Shown: positions 217 through 60,576, counted from the first letter of the stretch. The stretch: 64,000 nt of DNA from Bacteroidota bacterium (GCA_041191405.1 JBEEOW010000017.1:10317-74316); one strand, 5' to 3'. Numbers and translations: made by a program. The notes: generated by a model not told the origin, from the sequence alone.

Positions 217-1210
217 TTTTTAATACTAATGCTACAACAAATAAATCGTCAATAATTTCCGTGTGCAAATGGTGTTTACTTGGGAATAGTAGTTGTAGTC
301 TGCGTTGTACATTTTTGATTCCAATACCTCCATTTTTGTCTTTTCTTTTGCTATTATCAATAAGGTTGGTAATTGAAAAATGAATTTCTTTCTCTGTAAA
401 ATTCAATCGAATATTAAATGTTGATTTTTCAGATGTATCACCATGTTTAAAAGCATTTTCAATAAATGGTATAAATAGCATAGGTTCAATACATTTTTGT
501 TGATTTTCAATATTTCCATTTATTTCAAAATTGATAGTGTTGAAATATCTCATTTTGTTCAATGCAATAAAACTTTTTATATGTTCTATTTCTGCCTCCA
601 AACTAATTTTTTCTCCTTTTTCAAAACTTTCAAAATATTGCATCATATTTTTTAGTTGTGCAATAGCAACAGAAGTTAAATTTGATTTTTTTAATGATAA
701 GCTGTAGATGTTGTTCAGGGTGTTAAATAAAAAATGTGGGCTCATTTGTGATTGTAAATACAATAATTCAGTTTTTGATACTTCTTGTTCAAGTTTTTGT
801 TTCTGTTTTTCACTTTCCATCCAATAGTCAAACATACTCAAACCTGTACTTATAAATAAACCATACATCCATGTAAACGAATATACTTTTAGTTGATAAT
901 CATTAAATAGTGGTAAGTTAAAATTGAAATTATTCCACAAAAAAGCATCTGAAACCGTGAGCATTAAAAGGTTAAAACCAACGCCAATTAAATATTTTGA
1001 GTATTGTTTTTTTATCAAAAATTGAGGTACAAGGTATAAATAATTAAAATAAAAATAGGTTATATAACTGCATTGGATACAAAAACTTGCTGTAAAAAAT
1101 ACAACTGCATTTGATTCTGTTAAGTAAGGTAATTGTTGGGTAATAAAATCAATCCCTATGCTAAATAACCAAAATAATACATGTATAAATATTTTTAAAC
1201 TTTTGGGCAT
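209..1210 (-). CDS. LytS/YehU-type sensor histidine kinase (membrane N-terminus, His_kinase and HATPase_c domains)
   Basis: H-box SPHFLFNTLNNIYSL is typical of PF06580-type kinases. C-terminal ATPase motifs IENAFKHG and GGIGIKNVQRRLQLLF. Several N-terminal TM helices. Confidence 0.8.
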   Translation of the reverse strand: MPKSLKIFIHVLFWLFSIGIDFITQQLPYLTESNAVVFFTASFCIQCSYITYFYFNYLYLVPQFLIKKQYSKYLIGVGFNLLMLTVSDAFLWNNFNFNLPLFNDYQLKVYSFTWMYGLFISTGLSMFDYWMESEKQKQKLEQEVSKTELLYLQSQMSPHFLFNTLNNIYSLSLKKSNLTSVAIAQLKNMMQYFESFEKGEKISLEAEIEHIKSFIALNKMRYFNTINFEINGNIENQQKCIEPMLFIPFIENAFKHGDTSEKSTFNIRLNFTEKEIHFSITNLIDNSKRKDKNGGIGIKNVQRRLQLLFPSKHHLHTEIIDDLFVVALVLKNE

Positions 1211-1216
1211 TGGTGG

Positions 1217-1251
1217 TTAATTAATAATTAGCAATTAAGAATTAATAAATT
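1217..1251. repeat. Degenerate tandem heptamer tract (NNAATTA x4-5) abutting the kinase start codon
   Basis: Read directly: TTAATTA ATAATTA GCAATTA AGAATTA ATAAATT. Confidence 0.6.
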
Positions 1252-1983
1252 TTTTGCTCTACTGGATTCAGAATGAATCCCCTTATGTTTACTTAATATT
1301 TTCAACTCATTTATATAAACACAATAGGGATATAGTTTTTAAATTATTAATAATCAGACCTATATATCTGTTGTGGTTAATAAGTATTCCGAAAACATAG
1401 TTTTATTTTCTTCGAAAATCTTTTAAGTCTAATAAATAATTATATAAATTATTTAATCCATTTCTTAAAACTAATAAAACAAATCATAATAATATTCAAC
1501 AATCTTTATAAAGCTTGAAAATGACGATTAATACCATGATTTTATCTATAAATGTAACTTTATGAAGTTCGTCGATAAAAATAAGGTTTATATCTGGTGT
1601 TGTTTGCTTTTGATAGAAACTAATTTTTAGAGTCAATTATATTTTATTGATTTGATAAATAATTAATTAAAATAATTGGTTGGCTTATGGGAACTACAAT
1701 ATTATTACCAGACTTAGGTTATAAAATTTTAAGATTTAAAATTTCATTACCCAAAATTGACGTTTTGTTAGTTATTTTGCATGCTTTTTTGTTACTTGCA
1801 GTGTTTTCTATTTTTTATGTGAATCACCCTCGTATGGTTTTCAAAAAGCCATTCTTAAAGCATAAAGCCAACCTTGTTTATGCTATTAAGCCAATAATTT
1901 AATTTGTATTATTTCTATTTGAAAATAATATATTTTGAAATACAATTTATTAATTCACAATAACTGATAACTTAATTTTACTC

Positions 1984-4353
1984 ATGAAATATTTAATATA
2001 CATTTTATTATTTTGGTTTGGAGCGAGCAATATTGCATTGGCTCAAAATGCTTCAATTACAGGCACAGTAACTGACGAAAATAACAATCCAGTTGAATTT
2101 GTGAATATAAAACTGATTTCTTTACCTGATTCAGCAAAGGTAAAAGTGCAAACTACCAACGAATTTGGGCAATACCGATTTAATGAATTACCTGCTGGTA
2201 AATATGCATTGGTTTCACTGTTAATTGGTTATGATAAAAATGTCAGTGAGTCTATTATTTTGTTGCAAGATGAGAAAAAGACTTTTAAAGTAAGTATAAA
2301 ATCTACAGTTCTTAAAACAGCCGAGATTACTGTTACCGCAAAACGCCCATTAGTACGTGTAGAGGATGGTAAAATGATTGTTGATGTTGAAAATACATTG
2401 TCAAATTCAGGACAATCGGCAATTGAAGTTTTGAGGAAATCACCAGGTGTATTTATTGACCAAGATGGTAAAATTCAGTTAAAAGGGAAGTCAGGTGTGC
2501 AAGTTATGCTTGATGACAAAGTGATGTATATGAGTGAAGATCAATTGGCAAATCTTTTGAAATCTATTCCTGCTGACCAAATTAAAGAAATTGAGTTAAT
2601 TACAAGCCCATCTGCGAAATATGACGCAACTGGTACTGCTGGTATTATAAATATTAAGCTTAAAAAAGGTGCTTATGAAGGTTGGAATGGATCAACAAAT
2701 TTATCAGTGGGTTCTGGGAAATTCAGAAAAAGCAGTGTTGGTGCAAATTTAACTTACAAGAAAAATAAAATATTCTTTAATACAGGTTTGCAACATCAAA
2801 ACAGTGTGAATTACTCTGATTTCTATAACGACAGAAACGATTCGGATCCAACAGTGTTGAATAAAAGAATATACAATTCAACGCAATACGAAATGCCATT
2901 TACAAATACCAATTTCAATTTGAAAGGTGAGTATAAAGTAACTGAAAAAACATCTTTTACTTTTGACTTAAATGATGGTTTTGGTAGATACAATTGGCAT
3001 GGAAACGGATTTTCAAAACAATATAACCAAAGTGATGCTGTACGAAGTTCATTTTCAAATAAAGACGATGGATATACTCAATGGTTTAACGTATACACAA
3101 GTTTAGGTTTTAAACATAAATTTGATACAAATGCTACTGTATTAGATGGTTATGCAGCTTACAATAGTAATTTTGGCCATGAAGAAAAATTGCAAAGTCT
3201 AATCCAATTCGATTCATTAGGTGCTGATGCCAAAAATCCTTTTTATTTTAAAAATAATCTAAACTATTATTCTAATAAATATAATGCACAATTAGATTTT
3301 AAGAAAAAGTTAGGAGAAAAAATAAAAATAGAAACAGGAATTAAAGGTGTGCACTTGGATGATAATAATCCTAATAATATTACAATTACCCAAAATCACG
3401 CAGAGAAAGATGTTAGTAATTATTTTATTTATGAAGAAAATGTGTATGCGGCATATGGTTTAAGTTATTTGAATTTTGGGAAATGGAATATTCAAGCTGG
3501 TTTAAGGGTTGAAAATACACAAACAAAAGGTACTTTGTCATTGATTGATAGTGTGTTTACTCGTAATTATACAAACTTATTTCCAACGGGTAATATTACT
3601 TTTGTACCAAATGACAAACGTTCACATGCCCTGATGTATTCTCGAAGAATTACTCGTCCTGAAGGTGATCAATTAAACCCTGTTTTAAATATTATTGACC
3701 CATATAATGCTTGGGGAGGGGATCCATATTTACTACCTCAATATGCTGATAATACTGAGCTTACTAATACATTCTTTGGAGGAGGTTTAGTAGCTTCAGC
3801 AAATTACACTTATGTTAAAAATCCAATTGTTTGGACAAATAAACTTTCTAAAGTAGATAATAGATTTATTAATGGTCCACGCAATCTTGAATTTCAAAAA
3901 AGTTTTGGTGTAACAATTTCCGTTAATGCTCCAATATTTAAATGGTGGCAAACAAGTAATAGTGGAGCATATATTTATAATCAGTTTGTTGGCACAACAG
4001 ATTTTGGAAAAATTGATAACCAAATGGGAGGTTGGACAGCCAATTCAACACAAACATTTAGTTTGCCAAAGGATTTTACTGTAGAAGCATCTGGAATGTA
4101 TAACTCGCCAACTTCATATGCATTTTCAAAATCTTATGCACGTTGGCAAGTGAACTTATCAGTACAAACAAAAATTTGGAAGAAAAAAGCATCAATAAAA
4201 CTAGCATTTAATGATATGTTTTGGACTTTCCAATATGGAGGTTCAAACCAAATGGGCACATCGTTTCAAAAGTCGGGTTACCGTTGGGATAACAGAACTG
4301 TAATGTTTACTTTCTCATACAGATTTGGAAATCAGTTAATGAAATCGGAGTAG
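1984..4353 (+). CDS. Outer-membrane beta-barrel protein, TonB-dependent-receptor-like, with N-terminal carboxypeptidase-regulatory-like domain
   Basis: Signal peptide ending ALAQ. CarbopepD_reg-like ITGTVTDENNNPVEFVNIKL. Plug-like SPGVFIDQDGKIQLKGKSGVQVMLDDK. Long beta-rich C-terminus ending TFSYRFG. Confidence 0.75.
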   Translation: MKYLIYILLFWFGASNIALAQNASITGTVTDENNNPVEFVNIKLISLPDSAKVKVQTTNEFGQYRFNELPAGKYALVSLLIGYDKNVSESIILLQDEKKTFKVSIKSTVLKTAEITVTAKRPLVRVEDGKMIVDVENTLSNSGQSAIEVLRKSPGVFIDQDGKIQLKGKSGVQVMLDDKVMYMSEDQLANLLKSIPADQIKEIELITSPSAKYDATGTAGIINIKLKKGAYEGWNGSTNLSVGSGKFRKSSVGANLTYKKNKIFFNTGLQHQNSVNYSDFYNDRNDSDPTVLNKRIYNSTQYEMPFTNTNFNLKGEYKVTEKTSFTFDLNDGFGRYNWHGNGFSKQYNQSDAVRSSFSNKDDGYTQWFNVYTSLGFKHKFDTNATVLDGYAAYNSNFGHEEKLQSLIQFDSLGADAKNPFYFKNNLNYYSNKYNAQLDFKKKLGEKIKIETGIKGVHLDDNNPNNITITQNHAEKDVSNYFIYEENVYAAYGLSYLNFGKWNIQAGLRVENTQTKGTLSLIDSVFTRNYTNLFPTGNITFVPNDKRSHALMYSRRITRPEGDQLNPVLNIIDPYNAWGGDPYLLPQYADNTELTNTFFGGGLVASANYTYVKNPIVWTNKLSKVDNRFINGPRNLEFQKSFGVTISVNAPIFKWWQTSNSGAYIYNQFVGTTDFGKIDNQMGGWTANSTQTFSLPKDFTVEASGMYNSPTSYAFSKSYARWQVNLSVQTKIWKKKASIKLAFNDMFWTFQYGGSNQMGTSFQKSGYRWDNRTVMFTFSYRFGNQLMKSE

Positions 4354-4419
4354 CAGTTGTAATTGTTTAGACGAGGCATTCATAGTCACTTCGATAAAAA
4401 ATCAAAAATAAATAATTGT

Positions 4420-4449
4420 AGAGATATGGCATGCCATGTCTCTTTTTTA
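4420..4449 (+). terminator. Rho-independent terminator built on a 12-bp palindrome AGAGATATGGCA/TGCCATGTCTCT plus T-tract
   Basis: Perfect pairing apart from one G.U wobble, followed by TTTTTTATT. Lies 66 nt after the barrel-gene stop. Confidence 0.75.
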
Positions 4450-4567
4450 TTGTAATTTTTTTCTTTTTTACATTCAATTTAACTCCCCAAAAAAATATTT
4501 TTCAAAAAATACCGTGACCTTTTCAAATTTTGACATTAAGTCTACAGAAAGCAATTAATTTTACTGC

Positions 4568-5107
4568 ATGACAGATCAAGAAATCATATCAAGCCTTAAG
4601 TCGAATAGGCCACAACTTGGGCTTAAGGAATTGTACAAACAGTATACGCCAGTTAAAAAGTTTATTATCAATAATGGCGGTTCGGCTGATGATGCTTATG
4701 ATATTTTTCAAGAAGCTATTTTGGTTTTTTATGACAAAGTATTACACACTGAATTTGAACTCAGTAGCACTATTGGCACTTATTTGTTTAGTATTTCAAA
4801 ATACAAATGGAAACAGGTTTTGATTGCAAAAAATAGATTAAACGAATATGTCGGTTTATTTTCAGAAGGGGACTTTATAGTGGAAGAAAATGAATCGTAC
4901 TTTCAAATAGCTGAAAATGCTCTGGCTCAAATTGGCGAAAAGTGTAAAGCTATTTTAGTGTCGTTTTATCACTACAAACTAAGTATGACTAAAATTGCCG
5001 AAACTTATGGTTTTACTTCTGAAAATGTGGCTAAAAATCAGAAATACAAATGTTTAGAAAAAGCTCGAAATGCATTTAAGTCGCTTTTAGTACAAGCCAA
5101 TGTTTAA
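4568..5107 (+). CDS. RNA polymerase sigma-70 family ECF-type sigma factor
   Basis: 179 aa. Region-2-like DIFQEAILVFYDKV...YLFSISKYKW. Region-4 HTH LSMTKIAETYGFTSENVAKNQKYKCLEKA. An anti-sigma-like gene follows 11 nt later. Confidence 0.75.
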   Translation: MTDQEIISSLKSNRPQLGLKELYKQYTPVKKFIINNGGSADDAYDIFQEAILVFYDKVLHTEFELSSTIGTYLFSISKYKWKQVLIAKNRLNEYVGLFSEGDFIVEENESYFQIAENALAQIGEKCKAILVSFYHYKLSMTKIAETYGFTSENVAKNQKYKCLEKARNAFKSLLVQANV

Positions 5108-5118
5108 TTATTGCCAAT

Positions 5119-6384
5119 ATGAGAAATGAATTAAATACCATAGAACAAATTGAGCGATTTTTAAACAATGAACTCAATCCTGATGAAAGAGAAACTTTTA
5201 AACAAGAAATGGCCTTGGATCAAGATTTACAAGAAAATGTAATTGCTCAAAAAGTAATGCAAAGAGCAATTATGCAACTCGGAATGCGAGAAGAAATTGC
5301 AAATGCAGGTAAAAGCTACCAAAAGGAGTTGAAAATAAGAATTACAATTTGGGTAATGGTAGGTATTGGAATGGCTTCTGTAATTGGGTTTTCAATATTT
5401 AAATTATTGCAACACGACTCTACAGGAATTCAGAGGGTTAGGTTTGAGAATAACAAATTGAAAGTATCTAATCAATTATTGGAAAAACCAACATTCAGCA
5501 ATTTAAAACTGGATAATATAAATAATAATTCAACAAAAAAAATATCCAATAATGAAAGTTTAAAAGAAGATATTGCTCATCAAGAACATGATTATAACAA
5601 ATTTGTTCATTCAGATTCTCTTTTAAATAAATCCATTTCTGAATATAATGCAGAAAAACCAAGCTCGAATAAAGAGCATGAAGCGAGTGCTAAAATTCAG
5701 AAACAAGAAATTTTAACATCACAAAATGCCAAACTTATACCTCAAAAAACCAAAAGAAAAGATGAGTCAAAAATGGATGATGTTTTGGAATCTATAGGGG
5801 GAATTTTTAATAATTGGGGCTCAATATTTAAGTCAAAACCCAAAACAAATAAAGGAAAAATTCAAGCAGCTACAATAACCATTACTAATAATTTGTCGAA
5901 GGATGTATTAGTTTTTTGGGTTGATGCTCAGGGGAATGAAATGAAATATAAGTTGATAAGAGCAAACGAAGGTTATGTACAAGAAACATATTTGGGGCAC
6001 GTTTGGGTGTTACGAACATCAGATGATTCTGAGAAAGTAGTTGAGTTTAAAATCACCAAAAGAAATCAACATTTTGATACAGAAGGCGAAGTTTCAAATG
6101 CAAAATTTAAAGAAACTCAGAAAAATATATTTTGGGCACCAGTTTTTAAAGAAGCAATTAAAGCATCAACAATTACTGTAAAAAATACTTTACAAGAAAC
6201 TGTTGCTGTGTATTGGCTTGATTACAGAAATATGGAAATTCAATATTTTAAGCTTGCAGCAAATGAAGAAAAAAAGCAAGCAACATTTATTGACCAAAAT
6301 TGGGTTATTCGCAAATTAAGTGACTCCACAAAGGTGCTCCAATTTACTGTAACTAAGTCTGAAGAATATTTTGAAGTTAAATAA
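5119..6384 (+). CDS. Single-pass anti-sigma-factor-like membrane protein with two C-terminal VHL beta-domain-like repeats
   Basis: Cytoplasmic helical N-terminus (aa 1-70), TM helix aa ~74-96 (IRITIWVMVGIGMASVIGFSIFKLL), then a low-complexity linker. Two ~75-aa repeats (aa ~248-320 and ~346-421) align without gaps to the pVHL core W88..Y98..S111-Y-x-G-H115-x-W117. Confidence 0.65.
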   Translation: MRNELNTIEQIERFLNNELNPDERETFKQEMALDQDLQENVIAQKVMQRAIMQLGMREEIANAGKSYQKELKIRITIWVMVGIGMASVIGFSIFKLLQHDSTGIQRVRFENNKLKVSNQLLEKPTFSNLKLDNINNNSTKKISNNESLKEDIAHQEHDYNKFVHSDSLLNKSISEYNAEKPSSNKEHEASAKIQKQEILTSQNAKLIPQKTKRKDESKMDDVLESIGGIFNNWGSIFKSKPKTNKGKIQAATITITNNLSKDVLVFWVDAQGNEMKYKLIRANEGYVQETYLGHVWVLRTSDDSEKVVEFKITKRNQHFDTEGEVSNAKFKETQKNIFWAPVFKEAIKASTITVKNTLQETVAVYWLDYRNMEIQYFKLAANEEKKQATFIDQNWVIRKLSDSTKVLQFTVTKSEEYFEVK

Positions 6385-6400
6385 TTTTATTACAAACAGT

Positions 6401-8404
6401 ATGAAATATATATTGATATTTATTGTAGTGATAACAAATGTTGTCAATACCTTCGGACAAGGGAATAATACCTTATTAGTGGATGACTTTTCAGGTATTC
6501 ATTTGAAAAATTTATTTAATAATTATTGGTACGAATACACTGATAAGGCAAATAATGGCAACTCAGTGCTAAAGTTCTATTACGAAACCGAGGCAACCAA
6601 CAAAGTATTACGAGTTGATTATAAGCTAAATAAAGGTGCTTGTCCTCTCCATGCTTATGCAGTTTTAAGCTGCCCAATAAAGCCTGAAACCGTTGATACT
6701 GCTGATTTTAATGGTATTGCTTATGATTTCAAAGGCGATGAACACACTTTTAAGTACCGTATTTCTGCGGTAAAAGACTATTCATTTCATGAAAAAAATG
6801 TTGATTACTCAGACGATTGGACTACAGTAATTATCCCGTTTTCTGAATTAAAACAAACTTGGGGAAACCCTGTACCTTTCAATAAAAATTTAATTGAAAC
6901 TCTACAATGGGAAATAGTTAGTTATAGCAATGATACTGGCTATTTTCAAATAGACAATATTCGATTGATAAAGGATATTGATAAATTTAAAGCTGAAGTA
7001 AAACGAACTACGCCTCGTTATAATCTTGATACTACTTTTTCTGCTGAAGGTGTAAAGAAAGATATAATTGCATTCAAAAATGGTTTGGAAGAGGTTCACC
7101 CTAATTTGTATCGTTATATTTCAAAAAAAGCATTAGATTCTTTATTTAATCTAACCATAAATTCAATAAATAAGCCTCTAACAGTTTCTCAAGCATTATT
7201 AAAAATCAAACCAATAAAGATTGCCATAAAAGATGGTTTTGATGTTGCCTTGCCAAGTAAATATCTTGAAGCACTCGAAAACAATAAATTATTCCCTTTT
7301 GATATTAAAATTTTCAATGAAAAACTATATATCTATAATAATTATACTTCTGATACTACCATTAAAAAAGGAGATTTAATTGTTTCAATCAATAATCAGT
7401 CTGCATCTGATATTGTCAAAAATATGCTTGCTCAATGTACCAATGCTGGTAACATTACCTCAAAATCAAAGTATTATGTTGAATGGGCGTTTAATACATT
7501 GTTCCCTACTCTTTATGGGCTTAGCGATTCTTATCAATTAGAATTTAAAAATTCAAAAGGAGAAGTTTTAAACAAAAAAATACAAGGTATAACTGCTGAC
7601 AAAATAGAATATTATCATAATAATAGAAACAAAAAGTCTGATTTTGAGCCTTATAAATTAAGTTTTGATAAAAAGAAAAGTATAGCTACATTAAAAATAT
7701 CAAGCTTTAGAGATGAAGATTTATACAATGATAAATATAAATTTTTCAAATTTTTGAAAGCATCTTTCGAAGAAATAAAGCAGAAAAAAATTAAAAATTT
7801 AATTCTTGACCTTCGATACTGCGATGGTGGAAACGGTTTTAGTGCTTTAGAGTTAATGAAATATGTCAGTGTAAAAGATTTTCATTTCCTTGATTCATTA
7901 AGGTTGAAAATCAATAACAAACCTTCATTTTTTAATGGTAAAAACCCAATAAAAATAGGTAGTAATTTGGTGAAGCGAGCAACAGGTTATTACGGATACG
8001 AAGGATTAATTAAAAATTATGAAAATGAATCGCCAATTACTCCTTATAAATCTCATTTTACAGGTAAAATTTATGTGCTAACAAATGGAGCAAGTTATAA
8101 TCCATTTATGCTGAATGTTGTATTAAAAGAGCAGCCCAAAGTAGTGTTTATTGGAGATGAGAGTATATCGGAACGTTTAGAATTATCAGGTTATGGTGCA
8201 CCTCTTGTTTTGCCCAACACCAAAATTGTTACTTACATCCCGATTCAAAACTATTATTATTCAAAACCTGAGAATGAAATTTATCAAATAGGGCGAGGTT
8301 TAATGCCAGATTACGAAATGCAGGAAGACTTAGAAAGTTTTTTGATTGGCAAAGATAATTTAATGGACTTCACTTTGGACTTAATCAATAAACCAACAAA
8401 ATAA
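6401..8404 (+). CDS. Secreted S41-family (C-terminal processing/tail-specific) peptidase-like protein with N-terminal CIA30/CBM-like domain
   Basis: ATG at 6401 yields signal peptide MKYILIFIVVITNVVNTFGQ; the track's 6371 start is a TTG inside the upstream stop region. S41-like blocks IKNLILDLRYCDGGNG and YVLTNGASYNPF. The N-terminal 170 aa are jelly-roll-like (YWYEYTDKANNGNS...FQIDNIRL). Confidence 0.6.
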   Translation: MKYILIFIVVITNVVNTFGQGNNTLLVDDFSGIHLKNLFNNYWYEYTDKANNGNSVLKFYYETEATNKVLRVDYKLNKGACPLHAYAVLSCPIKPETVDTADFNGIAYDFKGDEHTFKYRISAVKDYSFHEKNVDYSDDWTTVIIPFSELKQTWGNPVPFNKNLIETLQWEIVSYSNDTGYFQIDNIRLIKDIDKFKAEVKRTTPRYNLDTTFSAEGVKKDIIAFKNGLEEVHPNLYRYISKKALDSLFNLTINSINKPLTVSQALLKIKPIKIAIKDGFDVALPSKYLEALENNKLFPFDIKIFNEKLYIYNNYTSDTTIKKGDLIVSINNQSASDIVKNMLAQCTNAGNITSKSKYYVEWAFNTLFPTLYGLSDSYQLEFKNSKGEVLNKKIQGITADKIEYYHNNRNKKSDFEPYKLSFDKKKSIATLKISSFRDEDLYNDKYKFFKFLKASFEEIKQKKIKNLILDLRYCDGGNGFSALELMKYVSVKDFHFLDSLRLKINNKPSFFNGKNPIKIGSNLVKRATGYYGYEGLIKNYENESPITPYKSHFTGKIYVLTNGASYNPFMLNVVLKEQPKVVFIGDESISERLELSGYGAPLVLPNTKIVTYIPIQNYYYSKPENEIYQIGRGLMPDYEMQEDLESFLIGKDNLMDFTLDLINKPTK

Positions 8405-8534
8405 TTCGGTCGATAAAATCAACCCATTTGTCTGCCAAATATAGGTGTGTATATAATCTATTTGGCTAATAATTAATAATTATCTTCTTTTGTATCAATC
8501 ATAAATCAGTTATTATTTATTAAAATTTAGAATT

Positions 8535-9440
8535 ATGAAAAATTGTATTTTATTACTAGCAAGTTTGTTCATTGCTTTCTCAGGAAGTGCCCAAAGATAT
8601 GGCGTTCCTAATTTTAAAATTGTATCTGATTTTACAGATAAAGCATTTGTCAAAAATATTGATGGTATTGCCATTGATAAACGTGGTTATTTATATGTGC
8701 CTAATTTTCAACAAGAAGGTACAATTGGTATAGTTGATTATTTTGGAAAAGTTTCATCATTTGTTACCTTACCAGAAGGTGGCGTTGCGAGTGGCTTAAC
8801 AGTTGATACCATTGCAAATACACTTTATATTGCTGATTATATAGGTAAAAATATTTATAAATGTGATTTGAATACCAAAGTATTAACATTATTTGTTCAT
8901 AATAATAGTTTTTCTTCTTTGAAAGATATTTTATTAACATCAAATGGAAATTTGTACGTTACCGACCAAGATAATACAATTGGTACGGGGAGTATTTGGC
9001 TTGTAAAACCTGATGGACAAGTTACTATGCTTGAAAGTTCATTGGGTCTTACCAAAGGAATTGCAATTAATAATCAACAAGATATACTTTATGTAACTGA
9101 GGAAATTCAAAGAAGTGAGCAAAAGCTTAGAAATCTATTGAGTTTTGAAATTGACTCGAAAGGTTTTTTATCTAATAAAACCAGATTTTCAACTTTCTTT
9201 GATTTTTCACTTGCAGGAATACAGGTTGATAAGTTTGGAAATATATACATTTCTCGAAGTGAAAAAGGCGTAATTACTATTCTAAATCCAGAAGGAAAAG
9301 TAATTAGAGAAATTACCTTGCTTGGCAAGAATCCAAGTGCCATAACTTTTGGAGGTATAGATAAAAAAACTGTATTTGTAACTGTAAATGATTCATTAAC
9401 AGTACAAAGTTTCAGGATGCCATTGTTAGGGCAGAAGTAA
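8535..9440 (+). CDS. Secreted SMP-30/gluconolactonase/LRE-like six-bladed beta-propeller protein
   Basis: Signal peptide ending GSAQ. Repeated blade motifs (LYIADY, LYVTDQ, LYVTEE, IYISRS, VFVTV) and a size of ~300 aa. Confidence 0.6.
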   Translation: MKNCILLLASLFIAFSGSAQRYGVPNFKIVSDFTDKAFVKNIDGIAIDKRGYLYVPNFQQEGTIGIVDYFGKVSSFVTLPEGGVASGLTVDTIANTLYIADYIGKNIYKCDLNTKVLTLFVHNNSFSSLKDILLTSNGNLYVTDQDNTIGTGSIWLVKPDGQVTMLESSLGLTKGIAINNQQDILYVTEEIQRSEQKLRNLLSFEIDSKGFLSNKTRFSTFFDFSLAGIQVDKFGNIYISRSEKGVITILNPEGKVIREITLLGKNPSAITFGGIDKKTVFVTVNDSLTVQSFRMPLLGQK

Positions 9441-9455
9441 TTAAAATATAATATT

Positions 9456-10094
9456 ATGGAATTTAACAAAGTAGTGCGTGGAGCAAACCGTGCAGTAAAC
9501 AACGAAGCTTCAGTTTTTGAAATTTTAGATGCAGGATTTTTGTGTCATGTTTCGTTTCAGCATCAAGGTCAAACCATGATGATACCAACAGCTTATGGTA
9601 GAGATGGTGAGTTTGTTTATTTACATGGCTCAACTAAAAATTTTATGTTGAATCAAATTTTAGACGGACAAACCATTTGTATCGGAGTAACCCATTTAGA
9701 CGGAATTGTGCTAGCTCGTACCTTATTTGATACCTCTGTAAATTATCGCTCGGCAGTTTTATTTGGCAAAGTAGAGCTGGTTACAGACGAAGAAGAACGT
9801 TTGTTTGGTTTAAAACTAATCACCGAAAATGTAGTGAAAGGTCGCTGGGACGAAGTATCAATTGGTACCCAAAATGAGCTCAAAGCAACCATGGTTGTAA
9901 AATTCAAAATAGAAAAGGCCTCAGCTAAAGTGTGTACAGGTGGCCCAGCTGGCGACGAAGAACAAACACAAGATATTTGGTCAGGTCATATTCCTTTAGT
10001 TACCAAAGCCCTTGAACCTGTACAAGATATGAAATTCGGCAAAACCTTACCACTTTGCTATTCAGTAAAAAACTATTGGGAAGTGAATAAGTAA
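9456..10094 (+). CDS. Pyridoxamine 5'-phosphate oxidase-family FMN-binding protein
   Basis: 212 aa. Split-barrel pattern CHVSF...PTAYGRDGEFVYLHGS...RSAVLFGKVELV is typical of the PNPOx-like superfamily. Confidence 0.6.
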   Translation: MEFNKVVRGANRAVNNEASVFEILDAGFLCHVSFQHQGQTMMIPTAYGRDGEFVYLHGSTKNFMLNQILDGQTICIGVTHLDGIVLARTLFDTSVNYRSAVLFGKVELVTDEEERLFGLKLITENVVKGRWDEVSIGTQNELKATMVVKFKIEKASAKVCTGGPAGDEEQTQDIWSGHIPLVTKALEPVQDMKFGKTLPLCYSVKNYWEVNK

Positions 10095-52632: not shown

Positions 52633-55600
52633 ATGAAAAGATTTAAAAATAAGGCTGATATTTTCTGGCTTTCTTTTGCTGTAATTTTATTAATTGGTTT
52701 TGCTTATCGAATTTTTACTAAAGAAAGGTTGTCGACAACTGCAAGTATTGAACGTTCATTTGCAGCGCCTGATACTGCCTATGCTGAATATGTGTACGCT
52801 TATACAAATGGAATTATTTCTTCGCATGATAAAATCAAAATTATTTTAACAGCTGATATTACTGATTCTTTAGAAAGAAGTGAATTGTTAACCAGCGATT
52901 TATTCGATTTTTCTCCTGAAATAAAAGGCAAACTTTCGTGGGAAGGTACCAATGCTTTGGTTTTTACACCTGATGCTCCACTTCCTTCGGGAATAGAATA
53001 TGCGGGTACTTTTGCCTTGAAAAAGGTTTATAAAGATATTGATGATAAGCTTGCTGAGTTTCCACTACACTTTAAAGTTATAAAACAAACTTTTGAAACT
53101 GATGAACCAACTTTGGGGTATCCTGAGAAATCGGATACAAGAAAGGTGGCTTTTACTGGGGTACTTTATAGTGCTGATATTGCCACGCCTGCCGAAGCTG
53201 AAAAACAATTGAAAGCTACTCAAAATGGTAAGGATTTGAAAATAACTTGGGTTCATGATGCAAACGGAACTACGCATAGGTATAACATTGAAGGTGCTGA
53301 GCGAACTTCTTCAAATGAAACGGTTAAAATTATTTGCGCTGAAAATACTGATGACGAACAAATTATCGAAACTGAAATTCCTGCCTTGGGTGTATTTAAA
53401 GTAGTGAAATTTAAAGTGGTGAATGAAGGAGAGCAATATTTGAGTGTGTTGTTTTCTGATCCATTACTTGAAAATCAGGATTACAATGGTATGGTTTCTA
53501 TTGATAACAATAACAACAATTTTAGATTTTTGGCTATTGATAATGAATTAAGAGTTTATCCTGAAAATACTTTTGATAGAGAGGTAAATGTGAATATTTC
53601 TGGTGCAATTAGAAATATTACTGCAGCCATGATGGGTGATGATAGAAATGAAAAAGTAGATTTTTCGGATGAGTTACCAGCTATTGCTTTGCTTTCAAGT
53701 GGAACTATTTTGCCAAGTTCAGCAAATCAAAAAGTGAGTTTTAAAGCAAAAGCGATTAAATCTGTAAATATTGAAATTGTTAGAATTTATGAAACGAATG
53801 TGCCTCAATTTTTGCAAACAAATGAACTAAACGGACAAAGTGAAGTGAAACGAGTTGGGCGACCAGTATTTCAACGCAAAGTTTCTTTGAAAAAAAGCAA
53901 TGCATCTAATCTTAAAAAATGGAACAATTTTCAATTCAATATTAGTGAATATATTCAACAAGAACCAGGTGCAATTTATCAAGTAAGTTTTAGGTTTGGA
54001 AAAGCCGATGTTTTGTGTGAATGTGCTGATAGTGATGAAAATAAAGATTGGAATTTGTTGAAACAAGGTTTGTCGTGGTTTGCTGATGTTGACGACAAAG
54101 ACTACGATAATGTAGAAAATTACTATTATGATGATTATTACGAAGGAGAAGGTGATTATTACGAAGAGTATGACTGGAAAAAACGTAATGACCCTTGCAA
54201 TAGTGCCTTTTATAATAGTAATCCAACATCGGTACAATTAAATATTTTGTCATCGGATATTGGATTAATTGCAAAAGCGGGCATAAATAATCAATACCAA
54301 ATTTTTGCTACCAATTTGGTAACAGCTCAAATTGAACAAGGTGTAAGTATTGAATTAATCAATTATCAAAAACAATCAATTGCAAAAGCAGTAACCGATG
54401 CAGAGGGAAAAGTTGTATTTGATTTAGGTAAAAATATTCCATTTTTAGCGATTGCAAGTAAGGGAAAAGAAAAAGCATATTTGAAATTATTAGACGGTGA
54501 TGCCTTATCAATGTCGAATTTTGAAGTAAGTGGAGAGTATATTCAAAAAGGATTAAAAGGCTTTATTTATGGAGAAAGAGGCGTTTGGCGTCCGGGAGAT
54601 AGTTTGTTTTTAACATTTGTGTTGGATGCTCAAAATGGTAAAGTTTCTCCAAATCAACCAATTGTAATGGAATTGCAAACACCACTTGACCAAGTTTATA
54701 CCAGAAAAGTATTAAACAAAGGAGTAGATGGAATGTATGTTTTCAAATTAAAAACAGAGCCAGATGCACCAACAGGAAACTGGTTTGTGAATGTAAATGT
54801 GGGCGGAGTAAAGTTTAGCAAAAAAATAAAAATTGAAGCCGTTAAACCTAATCGCTTAAAAATCAATTTGCAATTTGCCGAAAAAGAAATTTACAATATC
54901 AATAAAAATTCAATTGCAACCATTTCAAGTGCTTGGATGCATGGAGCTCCTGCGGCAAATTTAAGAGCTACTTATGATGTGTTTTATGGTAAATCGGTAT
55001 TTGAGGCTGGAAAGAAATTTGAAAATTATACTTTTGAAATTCCAGGGATAAGTATTGATGTGCCTGAAAGTAAAGTGTTTGATGGAGCATTAAGTGCACA
55101 AGGTGTGGCTACATTTAACCCTAATTTTAATAATTTAAAAGGTAATTTAAGTCCTGCGGTAAGTGCATATTTTAGAGGAAAGGTATATGAAAAAAGTGGA
55201 GATTTTAGTACAGATTTTACTACTGTTACCATTTATCCTTACCAAACAATTGCAGGTTTAAACATTAAGCAAGATGAAGGTAGATACAATTATGCTGTAA
55301 ATGAAGAGATTGATTTAGATGTAGTTAGTATTAATCCTAAAGGCGAATATACCTCAAATAGTGCATTACAAGTTTCAATTGTGAAGTTGAACTGGCAATG
55401 GTGGTGGGAAAGTACAAGCGATGGCGGTGTAACCAATTATATGTACAACGACAATGCATCGGAAGTAACAAGTGCATCTATTCCATTAAGTAGAGGAAAA
55501 GGAAAATTCTCATTTAAATTAGATGATAAACAATGGGGTAGGTATTTGGTAAAAGTTACAGACCCAAATTCGGGTCACGTAACTGGTGAAATTATCTACG

Positions 55601-58230
55601 TTGGTACGCCTTACGATTACAGCGATAAATCAACTTATGCTACAATGCTTACTTTTTCAGCAAAGAAAACGGTGTATAAAGTGGGCGAAAATGTTGAATT
55701 TTCATTCCCATCAGAAGCTGGAGGAAATGCTTTGGTATCTATTGAAAATGGAACATCGGTTGTAAAAACATTTTGGACTAAAACCAAACAAGGTAAAACT
55801 GACGTTGCCTTTTTAGCTGCATCAGGTATGGCACCGAATATTTATGTAAATGTTACGCTTTTATATCCACATGCTTACACGGCAAAAGGCAAACCTATGC
55901 GTTTGTATGGGGTAGTTTCTGTAGATATTGAAGACCCTGCAACGCATTTAGAACCAGTAATTTCTGCACCAGAATCAATAAAACCTGAGCAAACTTATAA
56001 TGTAACTGTTAAGGAAACACAAGGAAAACCAATGACTTACACCTTGGCTGTGGTTGATGAAGGTTTGCTTGATCTAACAAAATATACCTTACCTGAAATT
56101 TGGAAATCATTTTATGCTAAAGAAGCCTTAGGGGTTAAATCATGGGATTTCTTTGATAAGGTGATTAATGCTTTAGGAAGTGATATTGGTAAAATGTTTG
56201 CTATTGGTGGTGATGATTTTGCAAAACGTAAAGCTGGTGTGAAAGCAAATAGATTTAAGCCTGTGGTAACTTTTGTTGGTCCGTTTACAATTCCAGCAGG
56301 TGGACAAGCAACGCACAAACTGAAAATGCCAAACTATGTAGGTTCGGTTAAAATAATGGTTGTTGCTGCCAAGAATGGTGCTTACGGTACAGCTGAACGT
56401 ACCATGAAAGTGAAACAAGATTTAATGGTGTTGGCTACTTTGCCTCGTGTGGCAACTCCAAATGATGAGTTTTATATTCCGGTTACTATTTTTAATTATT
56501 CAAATGTGAAAACGGTAAATGTTTCATTACAAACCAATGCTATTTTCAAACCTTTGCAAGGAACTAATTTGAAAGTAAATTTTGGAAATGAGCAAGAAAA
56601 AGTGGTTTACTTTAAAGTGAAAGTTGCCAATGAAACAGGTATTGCAAATGTGAAAATTGCTGCAACGGCGGGTGCTGCAAGTTCAAAAGATGTTCAAGAA
56701 CTTGAAGTTAGACCAAGTAATCCTGTTACAACACAAATTAAATCATATACCGTGAAAGCTGGTTCAAATGGTGTAATTGCTTACACTCCATTTGGTACAA
56801 AAGGTACTAATTCGGTTTATGCTGAATTTGCATCCATGCCACAAATTAGCACAAGGTCTTTACAAGGGTATCTGGAAAAATATCCACATGGTTGTTTAGA
56901 GCAAGTAACTTCTGCGGCTTTCCCGCAGTTGTTTGTGTCAAATTTAATTGAAATGGATAGTCGCCAAAAATCACTTGCCGACTTACACATTAAAGCTGCA
57001 ATAAATAAACTTAGTACTTATCAAGTGGCAAGTGGTGGTTTTGCTTATTGGCCAGGAGCAGCACAAGTAGAAGAGTGGGTTACAAGTTATGCCGGTATGT
57101 TTCTTTGTCAGGCAGAGAAACAAGGGTATTATATTCCGTCATCCATGTTGAAAAAATGGAAAGTTTCGCAAACTAAACTTGCACAAACATTTTTACCAAG
57201 TTCAAAAAATCAATTTGAGCATCAAACCCAAGCGTATCGTTTATATAGTTTGGCGTATGCTGGTGCTCCTGATTTAGGTTCGATGAATAGGTTAAAAGAA
57301 TATGCACAGCTTGATAATCAGTCACGTTGGTTGTTGGTGGCAGCTTATGCTTATGCAGGTCAAACTACAGTAGCTAATAATTTAAGATTGAAATGTAATC
57401 CAAATTTATTTGAATCATATTACTACTATTATACATTTGGTTCAGTTACTAGAGACCAAGCCATTGTATTGGATGTATTGTGTTTACTAAAACAAAAAGA
57501 TGCGGCAGTGACTATGTTCAAAAAAGTTGCACAAAGTATTTCGGCAGATAATTATAATACTCAGGATGTTGCAATGAGTTTACTAGCGGTGAGTAATTTT
57601 GCAAAAACATTTGGTTTAGGTACTGGCGTCTATGGAAATTACACAAATGATGGAGCAGCTTCTGTGAATATCAATGCTACACAATCGTTGGTGAAAACCT
57701 TGAATGTATCAGGAACAAATAACCATCAATTAAAAGTAAATAATACAGGCAAATCAATTTTGTATGTAAATGTGGTATCGCAAGGAGCAAGTGCAACTCC
57801 AATTACTGTAGCTCAAAATAATGGTTTGAAGATTGATATACAATATGTTGATGCAAGTAACAGACCAGTAAATATATTGCAATTACCACAAGGTACGGAG
57901 TTTAAGGCAATTATTTCAGTAAGTAATATTTCAGCCGAACCGCAAACTCGTTTAGCATTAACACAAACATTGCCATCGGGCTGGGAGTTTATTAAATTAA
58001 AACAAAATGAAGAAACAAGTTCAGCAACCTATGATTACAAAAATGTACGAGATGCAAGTGCTTCATTCTATTTTGATTTAGGTAGAAACGAGAAAAAAAC
58101 ATTTACCTTAACATTACACGCCTCATTTGCTGGAACATATTATATGCCACCTGTATTGTGTGAAAATATGTACAACAGAAAGGTAATTGCTTATACAGCT
58201 GGCAAAAATGTAAATGTTGGGTTGAGGTAG
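52633..58230 (+). CDS. Bacterial alpha-2-macroglobulin family protein with intact thioester motif
   Basis: 1865 aa. N-terminal TM anchor, repeated MG domains. Thioester GCLEQ at Cys1421 (nt 56893-56904) within YPHGCLEQVTSAAFP. Confidence 0.9.
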   Translation: MKRFKNKADIFWLSFAVILLIGFAYRIFTKERLSTTASIERSFAAPDTAYAEYVYAYTNGIISSHDKIKIILTADITDSLERSELLTSDLFDFSPEIKGKLSWEGTNALVFTPDAPLPSGIEYAGTFALKKVYKDIDDKLAEFPLHFKVIKQTFETDEPTLGYPEKSDTRKVAFTGVLYSADIATPAEAEKQLKATQNGKDLKITWVHDANGTTHRYNIEGAERTSSNETVKIICAENTDDEQIIETEIPALGVFKVVKFKVVNEGEQYLSVLFSDPLLENQDYNGMVSIDNNNNNFRFLAIDNELRVYPENTFDREVNVNISGAIRNITAAMMGDDRNEKVDFSDELPAIALLSSGTILPSSANQKVSFKAKAIKSVNIEIVRIYETNVPQFLQTNELNGQSEVKRVGRPVFQRKVSLKKSNASNLKKWNNFQFNISEYIQQEPGAIYQVSFRFGKADVLCECADSDENKDWNLLKQGLSWFADVDDKDYDNVENYYYDDYYEGEGDYYEEYDWKKRNDPCNSAFYNSNPTSVQLNILSSDIGLIAKAGINNQYQIFATNLVTAQIEQGVSIELINYQKQSIAKAVTDAEGKVVFDLGKNIPFLAIASKGKEKAYLKLLDGDALSMSNFEVSGEYIQKGLKGFIYGERGVWRPGDSLFLTFVLDAQNGKVSPNQPIVMELQTPLDQVYTRKVLNKGVDGMYVFKLKTEPDAPTGNWFVNVNVGGVKFSKKIKIEAVKPNRLKINLQFAEKEIYNINKNSIATISSAWMHGAPAANLRATYDVFYGKSVFEAGKKFENYTFEIPGISIDVPESKVFDGALSAQGVATFNPNFNNLKGNLSPAVSAYFRGKVYEKSGDFSTDFTTVTIYPYQTIAGLNIKQDEGRYNYAVNEEIDLDVVSINPKGEYTSNSALQVSIVKLNWQWWWESTSDGGVTNYMYNDNASEVTSASIPLSRGKGKFSFKLDDKQWGRYLVKVTDPNSGHVTGEIIYVGTPYDYSDKSTYATMLTFSAKKTVYKVGENVEFSFPSEAGGNALVSIENGTSVVKTFWTKTKQGKTDVAFLAASGMAPNIYVNVTLLYPHAYTAKGKPMRLYGVVSVDIEDPATHLEPVISAPESIKPEQTYNVTVKETQGKPMTYTLAVVDEGLLDLTKYTLPEIWKSFYAKEALGVKSWDFFDKVINALGSDIGKMFAIGGDDFAKRKAGVKANRFKPVVTFVGPFTIPAGGQATHKLKMPNYVGSVKIMVVAAKNGAYGTAERTMKVKQDLMVLATLPRVATPNDEFYIPVTIFNYSNVKTVNVSLQTNAIFKPLQGTNLKVNFGNEQEKVVYFKVKVANETGIANVKIAATAGAASSKDVQELEVRPSNPVTTQIKSYTVKAGSNGVIAYTPFGTKGTNSVYAEFASMPQISTRSLQGYLEKYPHGCLEQVTSAAFPQLFVSNLIEMDSRQKSLADLHIKAAINKLSTYQVASGGFAYWPGAAQVEEWVTSYAGMFLCQAEKQGYYIPSSMLKKWKVSQTKLAQTFLPSSKNQFEHQTQAYRLYSLAYAGAPDLGSMNRLKEYAQLDNQSRWLLVAAYAYAGQTTVANNLRLKCNPNLFESYYYYYTFGSVTRDQAIVLDVLCLLKQKDAAVTMFKKVAQSISADNYNTQDVAMSLLAVSNFAKTFGLGTGVYGNYTNDGAASVNINATQSLVKTLNVSGTNNHQLKVNNTGKSILYVNVVSQGASATPITVAQNNGLKIDIQYVDASNRPVNILQLPQGTEFKAIISVSNISAEPQTRLALTQTLPSGWEFIKLKQNEETSSATYDYKNVRDASASFYFDLGRNEKKTFTLTLHASFAGTYYMPPVLCENMYNRKVIAYTAGKNVNVGLR

Positions 58231-59109: not shown

Positions 59110-59358
59110 ATGGATAAATATTCAACTGAGGAATTGACTCTGTGGTTCAAAAAACAATTAGCAGCAGAATTAAATGTACCTAGTGAAAATGTAGATTTAA
59201 ATGCAACAATATCAAGTTTCGGTTTAGATTCTTTATCAAATTTAACATTGGTTTTTTCAATTGAAGAATATACTAATTTAAGTATTGATCCAACTGTTTT
59301 TGAGGAATTTAATACATTTGAAGAAGTGATAGAATGGATTCAGAATCAAAAAAAATAG
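59110..59358 (+). CDS. Acyl/peptidyl carrier protein (phosphopantetheine attachment site)
   Basis: 82 aa. Canonical FGLDSL with Ser41 (nt 59230-59232), followed by helix II/III-like LTLVFSIEE. Confidence 0.8.
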   Translation: MDKYSTEELTLWFKKQLAAELNVPSENVDLNATISSFGLDSLSNLTLVFSIEEYTNLSIDPTVFEEFNTFEEVIEWIQNQKK

Positions 59359-60575
59359 TAAAGTGGAACCCTTACTCAGAAGGATATTTTGAAAATCCTT
59401 ATAAGCATTTGGCTGAATGTAAAAAATCGTCTCCAGTACAAATTGGATTAAAAAACTATTATATTTTATTCAATCATAGTGATGTGCGAAATGTAATTAA
59501 AAATCCAGATTTTTTAACTTCTGATTTTAGTGAATTTTTTAAAGAAAAAGAACCCTATATTTTTAAAGAGTCTAATGCATGTCCATATTTATCAAAAAGT
59601 ACATCAAAATGGTTGATGTATTTGGATGGAGAAGATCATTTAAAAGCTAGAGAGCTTGTAGAGAAGGGTTTGTCAGTGTTTAATTATGATGAATTAACAA
59701 ACCAAGCTATTGATGAAATTTTAGTTGAATTAAAAGCTTTAAAAGTAAACAATGAAATTGATTTAGTTGATGTTGCTGCAAAGTTACCTGTGATTATTAC
59801 TAATAAAATGTTAGGGTTAAGTAATCATTTTGATTTTTATGAATCTAAAACTTTAGCACATTCATTGGCTTATTCTCAAGATTTATTTCTTCCTCGACAA
59901 GTATATTTAAAAATTAATTCAGATATGGAGTTGATGTTTGAATTTTTGTCAGAAAAATATGAATCTTTATTAATAAATCCTGATGAATCGTTTTTTTCAA
60001 TTATAATAAAGTTAAATAATGAATTTAATTATAATTTTTCAAAAAGTGAATTAATTTCAGTAATCATGGTTTTGTTTTTAGGTTCTATTGAAACCTCTAA
60101 AGATACATTATCAATGATTTTTTTAGAGTTATTAAGAGATAAGTCGCTTTTAAAAACCATACAAAATAATACACAAATTGAAAATAATATTTTAGTTGAA
60201 GAGTTTTTGAGATACAGTTCACCTTTACAATATACCGTTAGGGTCAGTACCCTTGATTATACTATTGGAGATATTACAATTCCTGCAAATTCAAAATTAC
60301 TTCTATGTTTAGCTTCTGCAAATAGAGACGAAGAGGTTTTTGACGATGCTCAAAATATTGTTCCAAATCGAAAATATAATCCTCATTTTGCTTTTGGCGG
60401 AGGCTTGCATTCATGCGTAGGTGCCAAACTTGCAAGAATTGAATTAAGGGCATTTATTCCTAAAATAGCTTCATTTTTAAGTAGATGTGATATAAGTATT
60501 GAAAATGCACCTGTTTGGCAAAAAACTATTATGATGAGAGGTTTGAAGAGCTTAAATGTGGTTGTGAAAAAATAG
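59334..60575 (+). CDS. Cytochrome P450
   Basis: 413 aa. I-helix GSIETS, ExxR (EEFLRY), and heme loop FAFGGGLHSCVGAKLA with Cys361 (nt 60414-60416). Confidence 0.9.
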   Translation: MDSESKKIVKWNPYSEGYFENPYKHLAECKKSSPVQIGLKNYYILFNHSDVRNVIKNPDFLTSDFSEFFKEKEPYIFKESNACPYLSKSTSKWLMYLDGEDHLKARELVEKGLSVFNYDELTNQAIDEILVELKALKVNNEIDLVDVAAKLPVIITNKMLGLSNHFDFYESKTLAHSLAYSQDLFLPRQVYLKINSDMELMFEFLSEKYESLLINPDESFFSIIIKLNNEFNYNFSKSELISVIMVLFLGSIETSKDTLSMIFLELLRDKSLLKTIQNNTQIENNILVEEFLRYSSPLQYTVRVSTLDYTIGDITIPANSKLLLCLASANRDEEVFDDAQNIVPNRKYNPHFAFGGGLHSCVGAKLARIELRAFIPKIASFLSRCDISIENAPVWQKTIMMRGLKSLNVVVKK

Positions 60576-60576
60576 T

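Follow-up and report, generated by a model that had tools for sequence, protein, structure and literature searches.

Which signalling system is encoded by three closely packed genes at positions 4568-8404 of a 64,000-nucleotide (nt) stretch of Bacteroidota DNA (GCA_041191405.1; the whole stretch is hereafter the window), and does the third gene product, which has the fold of S41 peptidases, act in it as a protease? A first-pass annotation of the sequence had proposed a cascade in which a dedicated, co-transcribed S41 enzyme serves as the site-1 protease of an anti-sigma factor that controls an extracytoplasmic function (ECF) sigma factor. Our analysis leads, with moderate confidence, to a different reading: a self-contained and probably autoregulated operon of ECF sigma factor, anti-sigma factor and periplasmic partner, with a logic like that of RpoE-RseA-RseB and a new sensor domain. 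The annotation was right about the identities of the three open reading frames (ORFs) and about their close packing, with gaps of 11 nt between ORF1 and ORF2 and 16 nt between ORF2 and ORF3:

4568-5107, + strand: ORF1, ECF-type sigma factor (179 residues)
5119-6384, + strand: ORF2, single-pass anti-sigma candidate (421 residues)
6401-8404, + strand: ORF3, secreted protein with CIA30, PDZ-like and S41-fold parts, probably not catalytic (667 residues)

The three genes belong together. A distant relative, the metagenome-assembled genome (MAG) of a pond Cytophagaceae bacterium (GCA_027488865.1; locus L001), encodes the sigma factor (79% identity, BLASTP), the VHL protein (56%) and the CIA30-S41 protein (74%) in the same order, within flanks that are wholly different (a VanW gene upstream and a small unknown ORF downstream). 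In a close relative (GCA_964419685.1; locus L014) the triad is syntenic with the window at 94-98% identity. Since the arrangement is kept in two further genomes, one of them with changed flanks, we treat the triad as a unit; co-occurrence in other genomes was a check that the first-pass annotation had itself proposed.

The sigma factor and its membrane partner

Judged by its sequence relationships, ORF1 is a divergent but genuine ECF-type sigma factor of a large Bacteroidota family. Its match to TIGR02937 (residues 20-168, 42.8 bits) lies 0.1 under the cut-off, and the Pfam sigma models gave no score for it. A homologue search returned 365 sequences at E <= 1e-3; most of the 120 that were listed carry PF04542 and some also PF08281, and several among the matches listed are named sigma-70 family factors from Chitinophagaceae-type Bacteroidota. 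The only sequence match in the PDB was SigE of R. sphaeroides (2Q1Z, E = 0.002). In size and architecture ORF1 corresponds to a group 4 ECF factor, being a small protein with sigma-2 and sigma-4 regions only.

The presumed link between this sigma factor and ORF2 lies in the N-terminal half of ORF2, which is organized as follows:

5119-5334, + strand: N-terminal cytoplasmic module, residues 1-72, presumed to bind sigma; the same module is present in the downstream genes of three distant sigma-family loci (L007, L008 and L009)
5335-5409, + strand: transmembrane helix, residues 73-97, with K/R on its N-terminal side, predicted by reading the sequence
5410-5769, + strand: periplasmic linker, residues 98-217, rich in K/S/N/E and poorly conserved as judged by identity to the orthologue

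In four other members of the sigma family (44-47% identity) the next gene either overlaps the sigma gene by 4 nt or begins within ~40 nt of it. In L007, L008 and L009 this gene opens with a module of the ORF2 type, MRNELxxIExIERYLxxELxxxExxxFExxM...LQR, followed by a transmembrane helix; counting the window and L001, the gene after sigma carries the same N-terminal module in five of five loci. The C-terminal parts of the partner genes in L007-L009 differ from one another, consisting of TonB_C, cytochrome c or no known domain, and an independent search of a representative library likewise found the module on proteins of 72-1049 residues with TonB_C, cytochrome c or no known domain. Because one module always accompanies one sigma family while the extracytoplasmic domains are interchangeable, we regard the module as an anti-sigma signature. 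It would bind and hold sigma from the cytoplasmic side of a protein predicted to cross the membrane once.

ORF2 falls outside the familiar anti-sigma types. Residues 1-72 contain no HxxxCxxC zinc motif or other Cys/His motif and match neither zf-HC2 nor RskA; with no zinc motif, ORF1 and ORF2 are not a zinc-binding anti-sigma (ZAS) pair. The lack of a FecR domain that the first-pass annotation had described holds up, Pfam finding none in ORF2 at E < 0.1. With no FecR domain and no conserved transducer, the system is not of the FecR/TonB cell-surface signalling kind. The same annotation had taken ECF sigma, FecR and SusC together as the Bacteroidota norm, a view that is too narrow given that the ORF1 family has its own partner module on many periplasmic domains. 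The ORF2 linker is 33% identical to that of the orthologue, as against 56-78% in the domains, and the AlphaFold2 (AF2) confidence score pLDDT is < 50 at the start of the modelled piece.

A second line of evidence lies upstream of the sigma gene:

4491-4567, + strand: conserved non-coding block with an AT-rich stretch, promoter elements and a short 5' leader, near-identical in L001 and identical in L014
4514-4540, + strand: putative ECF-type promoter, composed of a -35-like GTGACCTTT (4514-4522), N11 and a -10-like CATTAAG (4534-4540)

The 77 nt ahead of the sigma start are far better kept between the window and L001 than the coding DNA, whose proteins share 56-79% identity. Alignment with the upstream regions of L007-L009 revealed a common bipartite motif, G(T/A)GACCTTT-N14/15-CATTAAG, with a spacing in the window of 14 nt between GACC and CATTAA. 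A pattern search found this motif once in the 64-kb window, at 4516-4539, where 0.02 occurrences are expected by chance, and once in each of nine loci, always 25-50 nt upstream of the sigma start. A motif so placed is what an autoregulated ECF promoter would be expected to look like, and an ECF-type promoter of the kind that the first-pass annotation had suggested looking for is thus predicted directly upstream of the operon. The motif before the sigma gene and the same partner module after it, in all five loci with DNA, support an autoregulated sigma/anti-sigma pair. Immediately 5' of the -35-like element, an AT-rich block of 23 nt (4491-4513) is also kept between the window and L001 and could be an UP element or the site of a second regulator.

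The presumed extracytoplasmic part of ORF2 ends in two domains that resemble the beta domain of the human von Hippel-Lindau tumour suppressor (pVHL):

5863-6093, + strand: VHL-beta domain 1, residues 249-325 (Pfam VHL, gap-free pVHL alignment, AF2 and Foldseek)
6160-6381, + strand: VHL-beta domain 2, residues 348-421 (Pfam VHL, AF2 and Foldseek; pLDDT 90-98)

ORF2 matches the Pfam VHL family (PF01847) in two stretches with 38.6 bits (cut-off 21). The AF2 model of residues 218-421 consists of two seven-stranded beta-sandwiches, pLDDT reaching 98 in repeat 2, and the top Foldseek matches of the model in the PDB are pVHL chains (E ~1e-5, root mean square deviation 1.3-2.8 A). A single-sequence search of the PDB with ORF2 recovered pVHL at E = 0.7 only, which is not significant. 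Repeat 1 aligns with pVHL without gaps and pairs W88/W267, Y98/Y277, S111/T290, H115/H294 and W117/W296, as well as N78/N257 and Y112/Y291. We take W88, Y98, S111, H115 and W117, in pVHL numbering, to be the residues that contact hydroxyproline-564 of HIF-1alpha. Repeat 1 then keeps the full five-residue hydroxyproline pocket of human pVHL, with Thr in place of Ser at S111; the corresponding residues of repeat 2 are W366, Y376, T389, Q393 and W395, Gln replacing His.

This part of the protein is strictly kept at short range, residues 218-421 showing 0 amino-acid changes in 204 codons relative to L014 at a synonymous divergence (dS) of 0.078. In a wider sample of 271 VHL-like domain copies, taken from the best 150 representative matches, the pentad W-Y-(T/S)-H-W is present in 198, indicating that the pocket is the conserved core of the VHL-like family. 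ORF2 ends at the second beta domain; it has no helical domain after it and neither the alpha domain nor the BC-box of pVHL, which excludes an Elongin C or E3 ligase function. In the representative library (1.84 billion sequences) no other protein joins the N-terminal module of ORF2 to VHL domains, and a literature search for a link between VHL and anti-sigma factors found nothing relevant.

VHL-beta-like domains themselves are widespread in the library, with 555 matches at E < 1e-3. Their architectures include proteins of 1900-2000 residues with 6-10 VHL stretches and fusions to ricin-B lectin, MACPF, CAP and SAM+TIR (P0014-P0017, P0023, P0024, P0028 and P0045), and such partners fit a binding module of general use. 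According to the literature, prokaryotic VHL domains have no known function (PMC7736814).

ORF3 and its catalytic positions

The ORF caller extends ORF3 to a TTG at 6371, whereas the start on Logan contigs is the ATG at 6401, which yields a plausible signal peptide (MKYILIFIVVITNVVNTFG/Q, by reading the sequence). The parts of the protein that matter for its function are:

6527-6907, + strand: CIA30 domain, a galactose-binding-like beta-sandwich, residues 43-169 (PF08547, 31.6 bits, cut-off 24)
7238-7240, + strand: codon TTT of Phe280, where the family has a conserved His that is taken, by analogy, to be the catalytic one (family alignment)
7682-8317, + strand: S41 core domain, residues 428-639 (PF03572, 40.1 bits, cut-off 24)
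8099-8101, + strand: codon AAT of Asn567, at the position of the S41 nucleophile Ser (family alignment)

The CIA30 domain is absent from the first-pass annotation. Its region also has a weak match to SGBP_B_XBD and models poorly (pLDDT < 50), and in an alignment of the window protein with ten relatives the N-terminal extension with the CIA30 match is confined to the three orthologues of the triad (5.8 billion sequences searched). Residues 210-667 model well and find CPAF as the best Foldseek match, followed by CtpA, CtpB, D1P, Prc and tricorn. The best profile match of the ORF3 family is the interphotoreceptor retinoid-binding protein (IRBP), a non-enzymatic S41 relative (E = 2.7e-25); a single-sequence PDB search gave a chance match only (E = 0.3). 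A PDZ domain scores 13.7 bits in Pfam, which is sub-threshold, the family profile matches PDZ structures weakly, and the model contains a beta-rich insert at 300-395.

Two catalytic positions are altered. In the N-terminal helical domain, the His of a ..DGH.. motif is shared by all eight non-orthologous relatives and by the structures 8VCB, 4L8K and 4GHN; the three orthologues all have Phe280 instead. The nucleophile column holds Ser in 10 of the 11 aligned sequences, and this Ser aligns with the S41-motif Ser of the same three structures, which are from Bacteroides. Asn567 recurs, with the same AAT codon, in the 94%-identical protein of L014 (P0003), and it is for this reason not a sequencing error; the distant orthologue (P0004, 74% identity) has Ser. 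Shifting the register so that Ser565 becomes the nucleophile was considered and rejected, because the Ser565 column is not conserved in the family. We take the dyad register of S41A enzymes from S430/K455 of Prc, which presumably places the dyad Lys at Glu591 of ORF3. A general base was consequently not found in ORF3, with Phe280 standing for His and Glu591 at the dyad Lys position. Moreover, the relatives read G-E-E-T-G-G rather than the T-F-G-K-G of Ser/Lys enzymes, which places the ORF3 branch outside the Prc/CtpB dyad type. In CPAF the triad is His105-Ser499-Glu558, the His coming from the N-terminal part (PMC8787135). The distribution of residues places the loss of the His in the triad's common ancestor and that of the Ser later, in one lineage; the later loss fits relaxed constraint on catalysis.

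Despite the loss of these residues, the protein is under strong purifying selection. Relative to L014 the ratio of nonsynonymous to synonymous divergence (dN/dS) is 0.10 for sigma and 0.13 for ORF3 overall, falling to 0.057 in residues 416-667. The S41 core is the best-conserved part of ORF3 (76% and 98.8% identity, the whole protein being 74% identical to the distant orthologue), and the DLRxxxGG motif is kept. ORF3 is still functional. Combining an S41 fold and signature with altered catalytic positions, it is probably not a protease, and the simplest reading is that of a conserved, non-catalytic and probably peptide-binding protein. The first-pass annotation had named a catalytically dead S41-like protein among the findings that would count against its own proposal, and the lost catalytic residues point to that outcome.

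A homologue with intact His and Ser occurs in a Bacteroidia MAG (GCA_039915075.1; L011 2188-5497), where an ECF sigma factor, a ZAS-type anti-sigma factor (HxxxCxxC), a 142-residue membrane protein and the S41 protein are encoded on one strand. This array leaves room for a link between the S41 subfamily of ORF3 and ECF systems, and it could be a version of the window's arrangement with a working enzyme. Two other ORF3 relatives that were checked have no sigma genes as neighbours, and Bacteroidota encode ~22 ECFs per genome (bioRxiv 10.1101/2019.12.11.873521), so that the proximity in L011 could be due to chance.

Distribution, transcription and flanks of the triad

Among 5.8 billion clustered proteins and 1.84 billion representatives, ORF2 matched only its own cluster and one 56%-identical orthologue. 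A profile scan with the ORF2 alignment found nothing new in metagenome contigs and, in genome contigs, only the known Cytophagaceae MAG. The VHL-type triad is therefore rare, the VHL sensor of ORF2 and its CIA30 pseudo-S41 partner being confined to three related uncultured freshwater genomes. The organism of the window was found in many freshwater and riverine metagenomes, and the host is a freshwater Cytophagales-like Bacteroidota bacterium. Synonymous divergence from L014 is patchy along the locus (window 4568-10094, L014 3956-9842), with values of 0.068 for sigma, 0.064 for the anti-sigma and 0.19 for the S41-like gene, and of 0.35 for the CIA30 part, 0.086 for the S41 core, 0.30 for SGL and 0.30 for Pyridox_ox, a pattern that looks like a recombination mosaic across the operon.

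The operon is preceded by a transcriptional boundary:

4420-4449, + strand: intrinsic terminator of the upstream OMP_b-brl_3 gene (10-bp stem, 4-nt loop, T-run)

The strong terminator described in the first-pass annotation is real. RNA folding gave -15.3 kcal/mol for the hairpin at 4420-4443 (z = -4.4), none of 200 shuffles being as stable, and the terminator shields the operon from upstream transcription. An Rfam scan of 4300-8600 found no RNA element. One freshwater metatranscriptome run contains contigs from a related strain, with identities mostly of 90-99%. Together they bridge ORF1 and ORF2 (4637-5137) and extend over the 5' portion of ORF2 and over stretches of ORF3; the assembler depth is greater over sigma and that 5' portion. 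These contigs agree weakly with the expression of ORF1-ORF3 as one unit. Between ORF3 and the SGL gene (8409-8524), a related-strain contig from the metatranscriptome has 114 nt replaced by an unrelated 32 nt, and this intergenic region thus differs among strains.

The upstream gene (1984-4353) encodes an OMP_b-brl_3 barrel of 789 residues. It contains a CarboxypepD_reg domain and matches Plug below the threshold; no signalling domain was matched in it. The first-pass annotation had rightly described the barrel as transcriptionally separate, as the intervening terminator attests, and had left room for its membership in the same circuit. We reject that membership, because the barrel has its own terminator and no OMP_b-brl_3 gene lies beside the triad in L001. 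In L014 the barrel gene is split into two called ORFs (685-3064; 200 and 546 residues), owing to a frameshift or pseudogene or else to a fault in the assembly.

Other genes in the window include, at 209-1210 on the - strand and past the window start (L003 3359-6092), a tandem pair of LytS-type His_kinase genes together with a gene for a LytTR response regulator; a 7TMR-DISM protein is encoded still farther upstream. A bacterial alpha-2-macroglobulin of 1865 residues with bMG3/5/6/10, bait-region and A2M domains is encoded at 52633-58230, and adjoining genes for a cytochrome P450 and an MBOAT O-acyltransferase lie 1 nt apart at 59334-61923.

Proposed mechanism, alternatives and significance

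In the mechanism that we favour, the N-terminal module of ORF2 (~70 residues, cytoplasmic) would keep the sigma factor ORF1 at the inner membrane, and ORF2 would continue through one membrane pass and a long flexible linker to two periplasmic VHL-beta domains acting as the sensor. The likely ligand of these domains is a proline- or hydroxyproline-containing segment of a peptide or protein, because repeat 1 keeps the complete pocket that reads 4-hydroxyproline in human pVHL. Exported ORF3 would be a non-catalytic, RseB-like partner that binds a ligand, the VHL domains or both and in this way decides on inactivation of the anti-sigma, CIA30 providing a glycan-binding-like and the S41 body a peptide-binding-like part. 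It would not act as a site-1 protease, because the His is lost and in the lineage of the window the Ser too, and inactivation of the anti-sigma would presumably fall to other, housekeeping proteases. Freed sigma would then transcribe the operon from GTGACCTTT-N11-CATTAAG at 4514-4540. The steps of sigma sequestration and of sensing by the VHL pair draw support from sequence comparison; sigma binding as such, the membrane topology, the role of ORF3, the nature of the ligand and the route of anti-sigma inactivation are what we infer.

The closest parallel in logic is the rpoE-rseA-rseB operon of E. coli, which has the same order of sigma factor, single-pass anti-sigma and exported non-catalytic protein, and which is autoregulated from an ECF promoter, as is predicted here. 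By analogy, we propose that ORF3 binds the anti-sigma on its periplasmic side and so gates inactivation. RseA and RseB are, however, unrelated in sequence and fold to ORF2 and ORF3, which instead bring a VHL-beta pair and a CIA30 domain joined to an S41 body. In the clostridial SigI/RsgI systems, as may be the case here, one N-terminal sigma/anti-sigma family is combined with many sensors, here VHL, TonB_C, cytochrome c and unknown domains; the SigI and RsgI families are unrelated to ORF1 and ORF2. In RsgI, moreover, the signal depends on a conserved periplasmic domain that undergoes autoproteolysis (PMC10328401), and ORF2 has no such domain.

The individual components also have precedents. 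ORF2 shares with the human pVHL beta domain, the reader of hydroxyproline in HIF-alpha, its fold, its Pfam membership and the pocket of repeat 1, but its domain is in tandem, predicted to be periplasmic, joined to an anti-sigma module and free of alpha domain and BC-box. IRBP (retinol-binding protein 3) resembles the proposed ORF3 in reusing the S41 fold as a binding module without protease activity; it differs in being a vertebrate extracellular lipid and retinoid carrier of four modules, without a CIA30 domain or any tie to transcription control. What is new in the window is the tandem VHL-beta pair with an intact hydroxyproline pocket as an anti-sigma sensor, together with a dedicated pseudo-S41 partner that bears a CIA30 domain.

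Several points weigh against this mechanism. The N-terminal module of ORF2 matches no curated anti-sigma family in Pfam or NCBIfam, and a profile of it found no solved structural relative in the PDB. The pocket residues kept in VHL-like domains could be partly structural. The mapping of the catalytic His and Ser of ORF3 rests on the family alignment and on fold similarity to CPAF, and the distant orthologue keeps the Ser, so that some activity with an unconventional base is conceivable. As the RNA evidence consists of assembled contigs, from a related strain and with DNA carry-over possible, it suggests a single transcription unit only weakly. Finally, ORF3 could simply be an output of the regulon and take no part in sensing.

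This last point leads to the alternative that survives best, namely that ORF1 and ORF2 form the whole signalling pair and ORF3 is only a regulated output, an exported envelope protein that binds glycans or peptides. Effector genes are co-transcribed in many ECF operons, elsewhere in the sigma family the two-gene pair stands alone with unrelated genes after it, and most ORF3 relatives that were checked are not beside sigma genes; the promoter motif, moreover, is found only at this operon in the 64-kb window, so that the operon may be the main regulon. We consider this possible, if rather unlikely, because the CIA30-S41 fusion occurs, among 5.8 billion sequences searched, only together with the VHL anti-sigma (in the three orthologues) and because the 16-nt gap and the arrangement are kept across 56-79% divergence with changed flanks. 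The restriction of the fusion to the triad and the kept arrangement argue for a functional unit, whichever of the two roles ORF3 has within it.

The protease model of the first-pass annotation fares worse. According to it, ORF3 is an active S41 enzyme of the Prc/CtpB kind that cuts the VHL anti-sigma on its periplasmic side upon ligand binding by the VHL repeats and starts regulated intramembrane proteolysis. Prc and CtpB do act on anti-sigma-type signalling proteins, and they resemble ORF3 as S41-fold proteins tied to transmembrane pathways that control sigma factors (cell-surface signalling in Pseudomonas and sigma-K activation in Bacillus, respectively). ORF3 is probably co-transcribed and is co-conserved with the anti-sigma, it combines the S41 fold with a PDZ-like region and the DLRxxxGG motif, its distant orthologue retains the Ser, and the subfamily member with intact His and Ser in L011 lies downstream of an ECF sigma/ZAS pair. 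However, Prc and CtpB are active Ser/Lys enzymes encoded outside the sigma operon, whereas ORF3 belongs to a CPAF/IRBP-like branch and lacks the His and, in the lineage of the window, the Ser; the window system also lacks a FecR domain and a TonB-dependent transducer with a signalling domain. With Phe for His in three of three orthologues, Asn for Ser in the window and in L014, no dyad Lys and a best profile match to the non-enzymatic IRBP, the idea of a dedicated site-1 protease is improbable and we do not retain it.

Equally doubtful is the view of ORF2 as a periplasmic binding protein, anchored in the membrane, whose only tie to the sigma factor is the operon. The absence of Pfam and NCBIfam anti-sigma matches in its N-terminal 97 residues, of a zinc motif and of a PDB relative lends this view some weight; against it stands the module itself, accompanying the sigma family in every locus examined, in overlapping or nearly abutting genes with interchangeable C-termini.

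Returning to the sigma/anti-sigma/partner operon, a more specific version of it would make the system one of extracytoplasmic hydroxyproline sensing, in which the pseudo-protease captures hydroxyproline-rich (glyco)peptides and presents them to the hydroxyproline pocket of the VHL domains, upon which sigma is freed. Candidate sources of such peptides would be algal or plant cell-wall glycoproteins and collagen. We regard this version as a long shot. If true, it would provide the first assigned function for a prokaryotic VHL domain and would mean that the reading of hydroxyproline by the VHL fold is older than, or independent of, the HIF pathway of animals.

ECF pairs are a major form of bacterial signalling, but what most of them sense is not known, above all among Bacteroidota systems other than the SusC/FecR type. 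A well-characterized eukaryotic reader fold with an intact pocket, placed on a candidate anti-sigma factor, offers a concrete and testable ligand hypothesis for a prokaryotic VHL domain. ORF3, in turn, provides a clear bacterial case of an S41 protease fold turned into a conserved, selected and probably non-catalytic partner, and cautions that the annotation 'S41 peptidase' in signalling models need not mean a protease. More generally, the common promoter motif and the exchangeable sensors define a Bacteroidota ECF family that can be mined for pairs of sensor and ligand.

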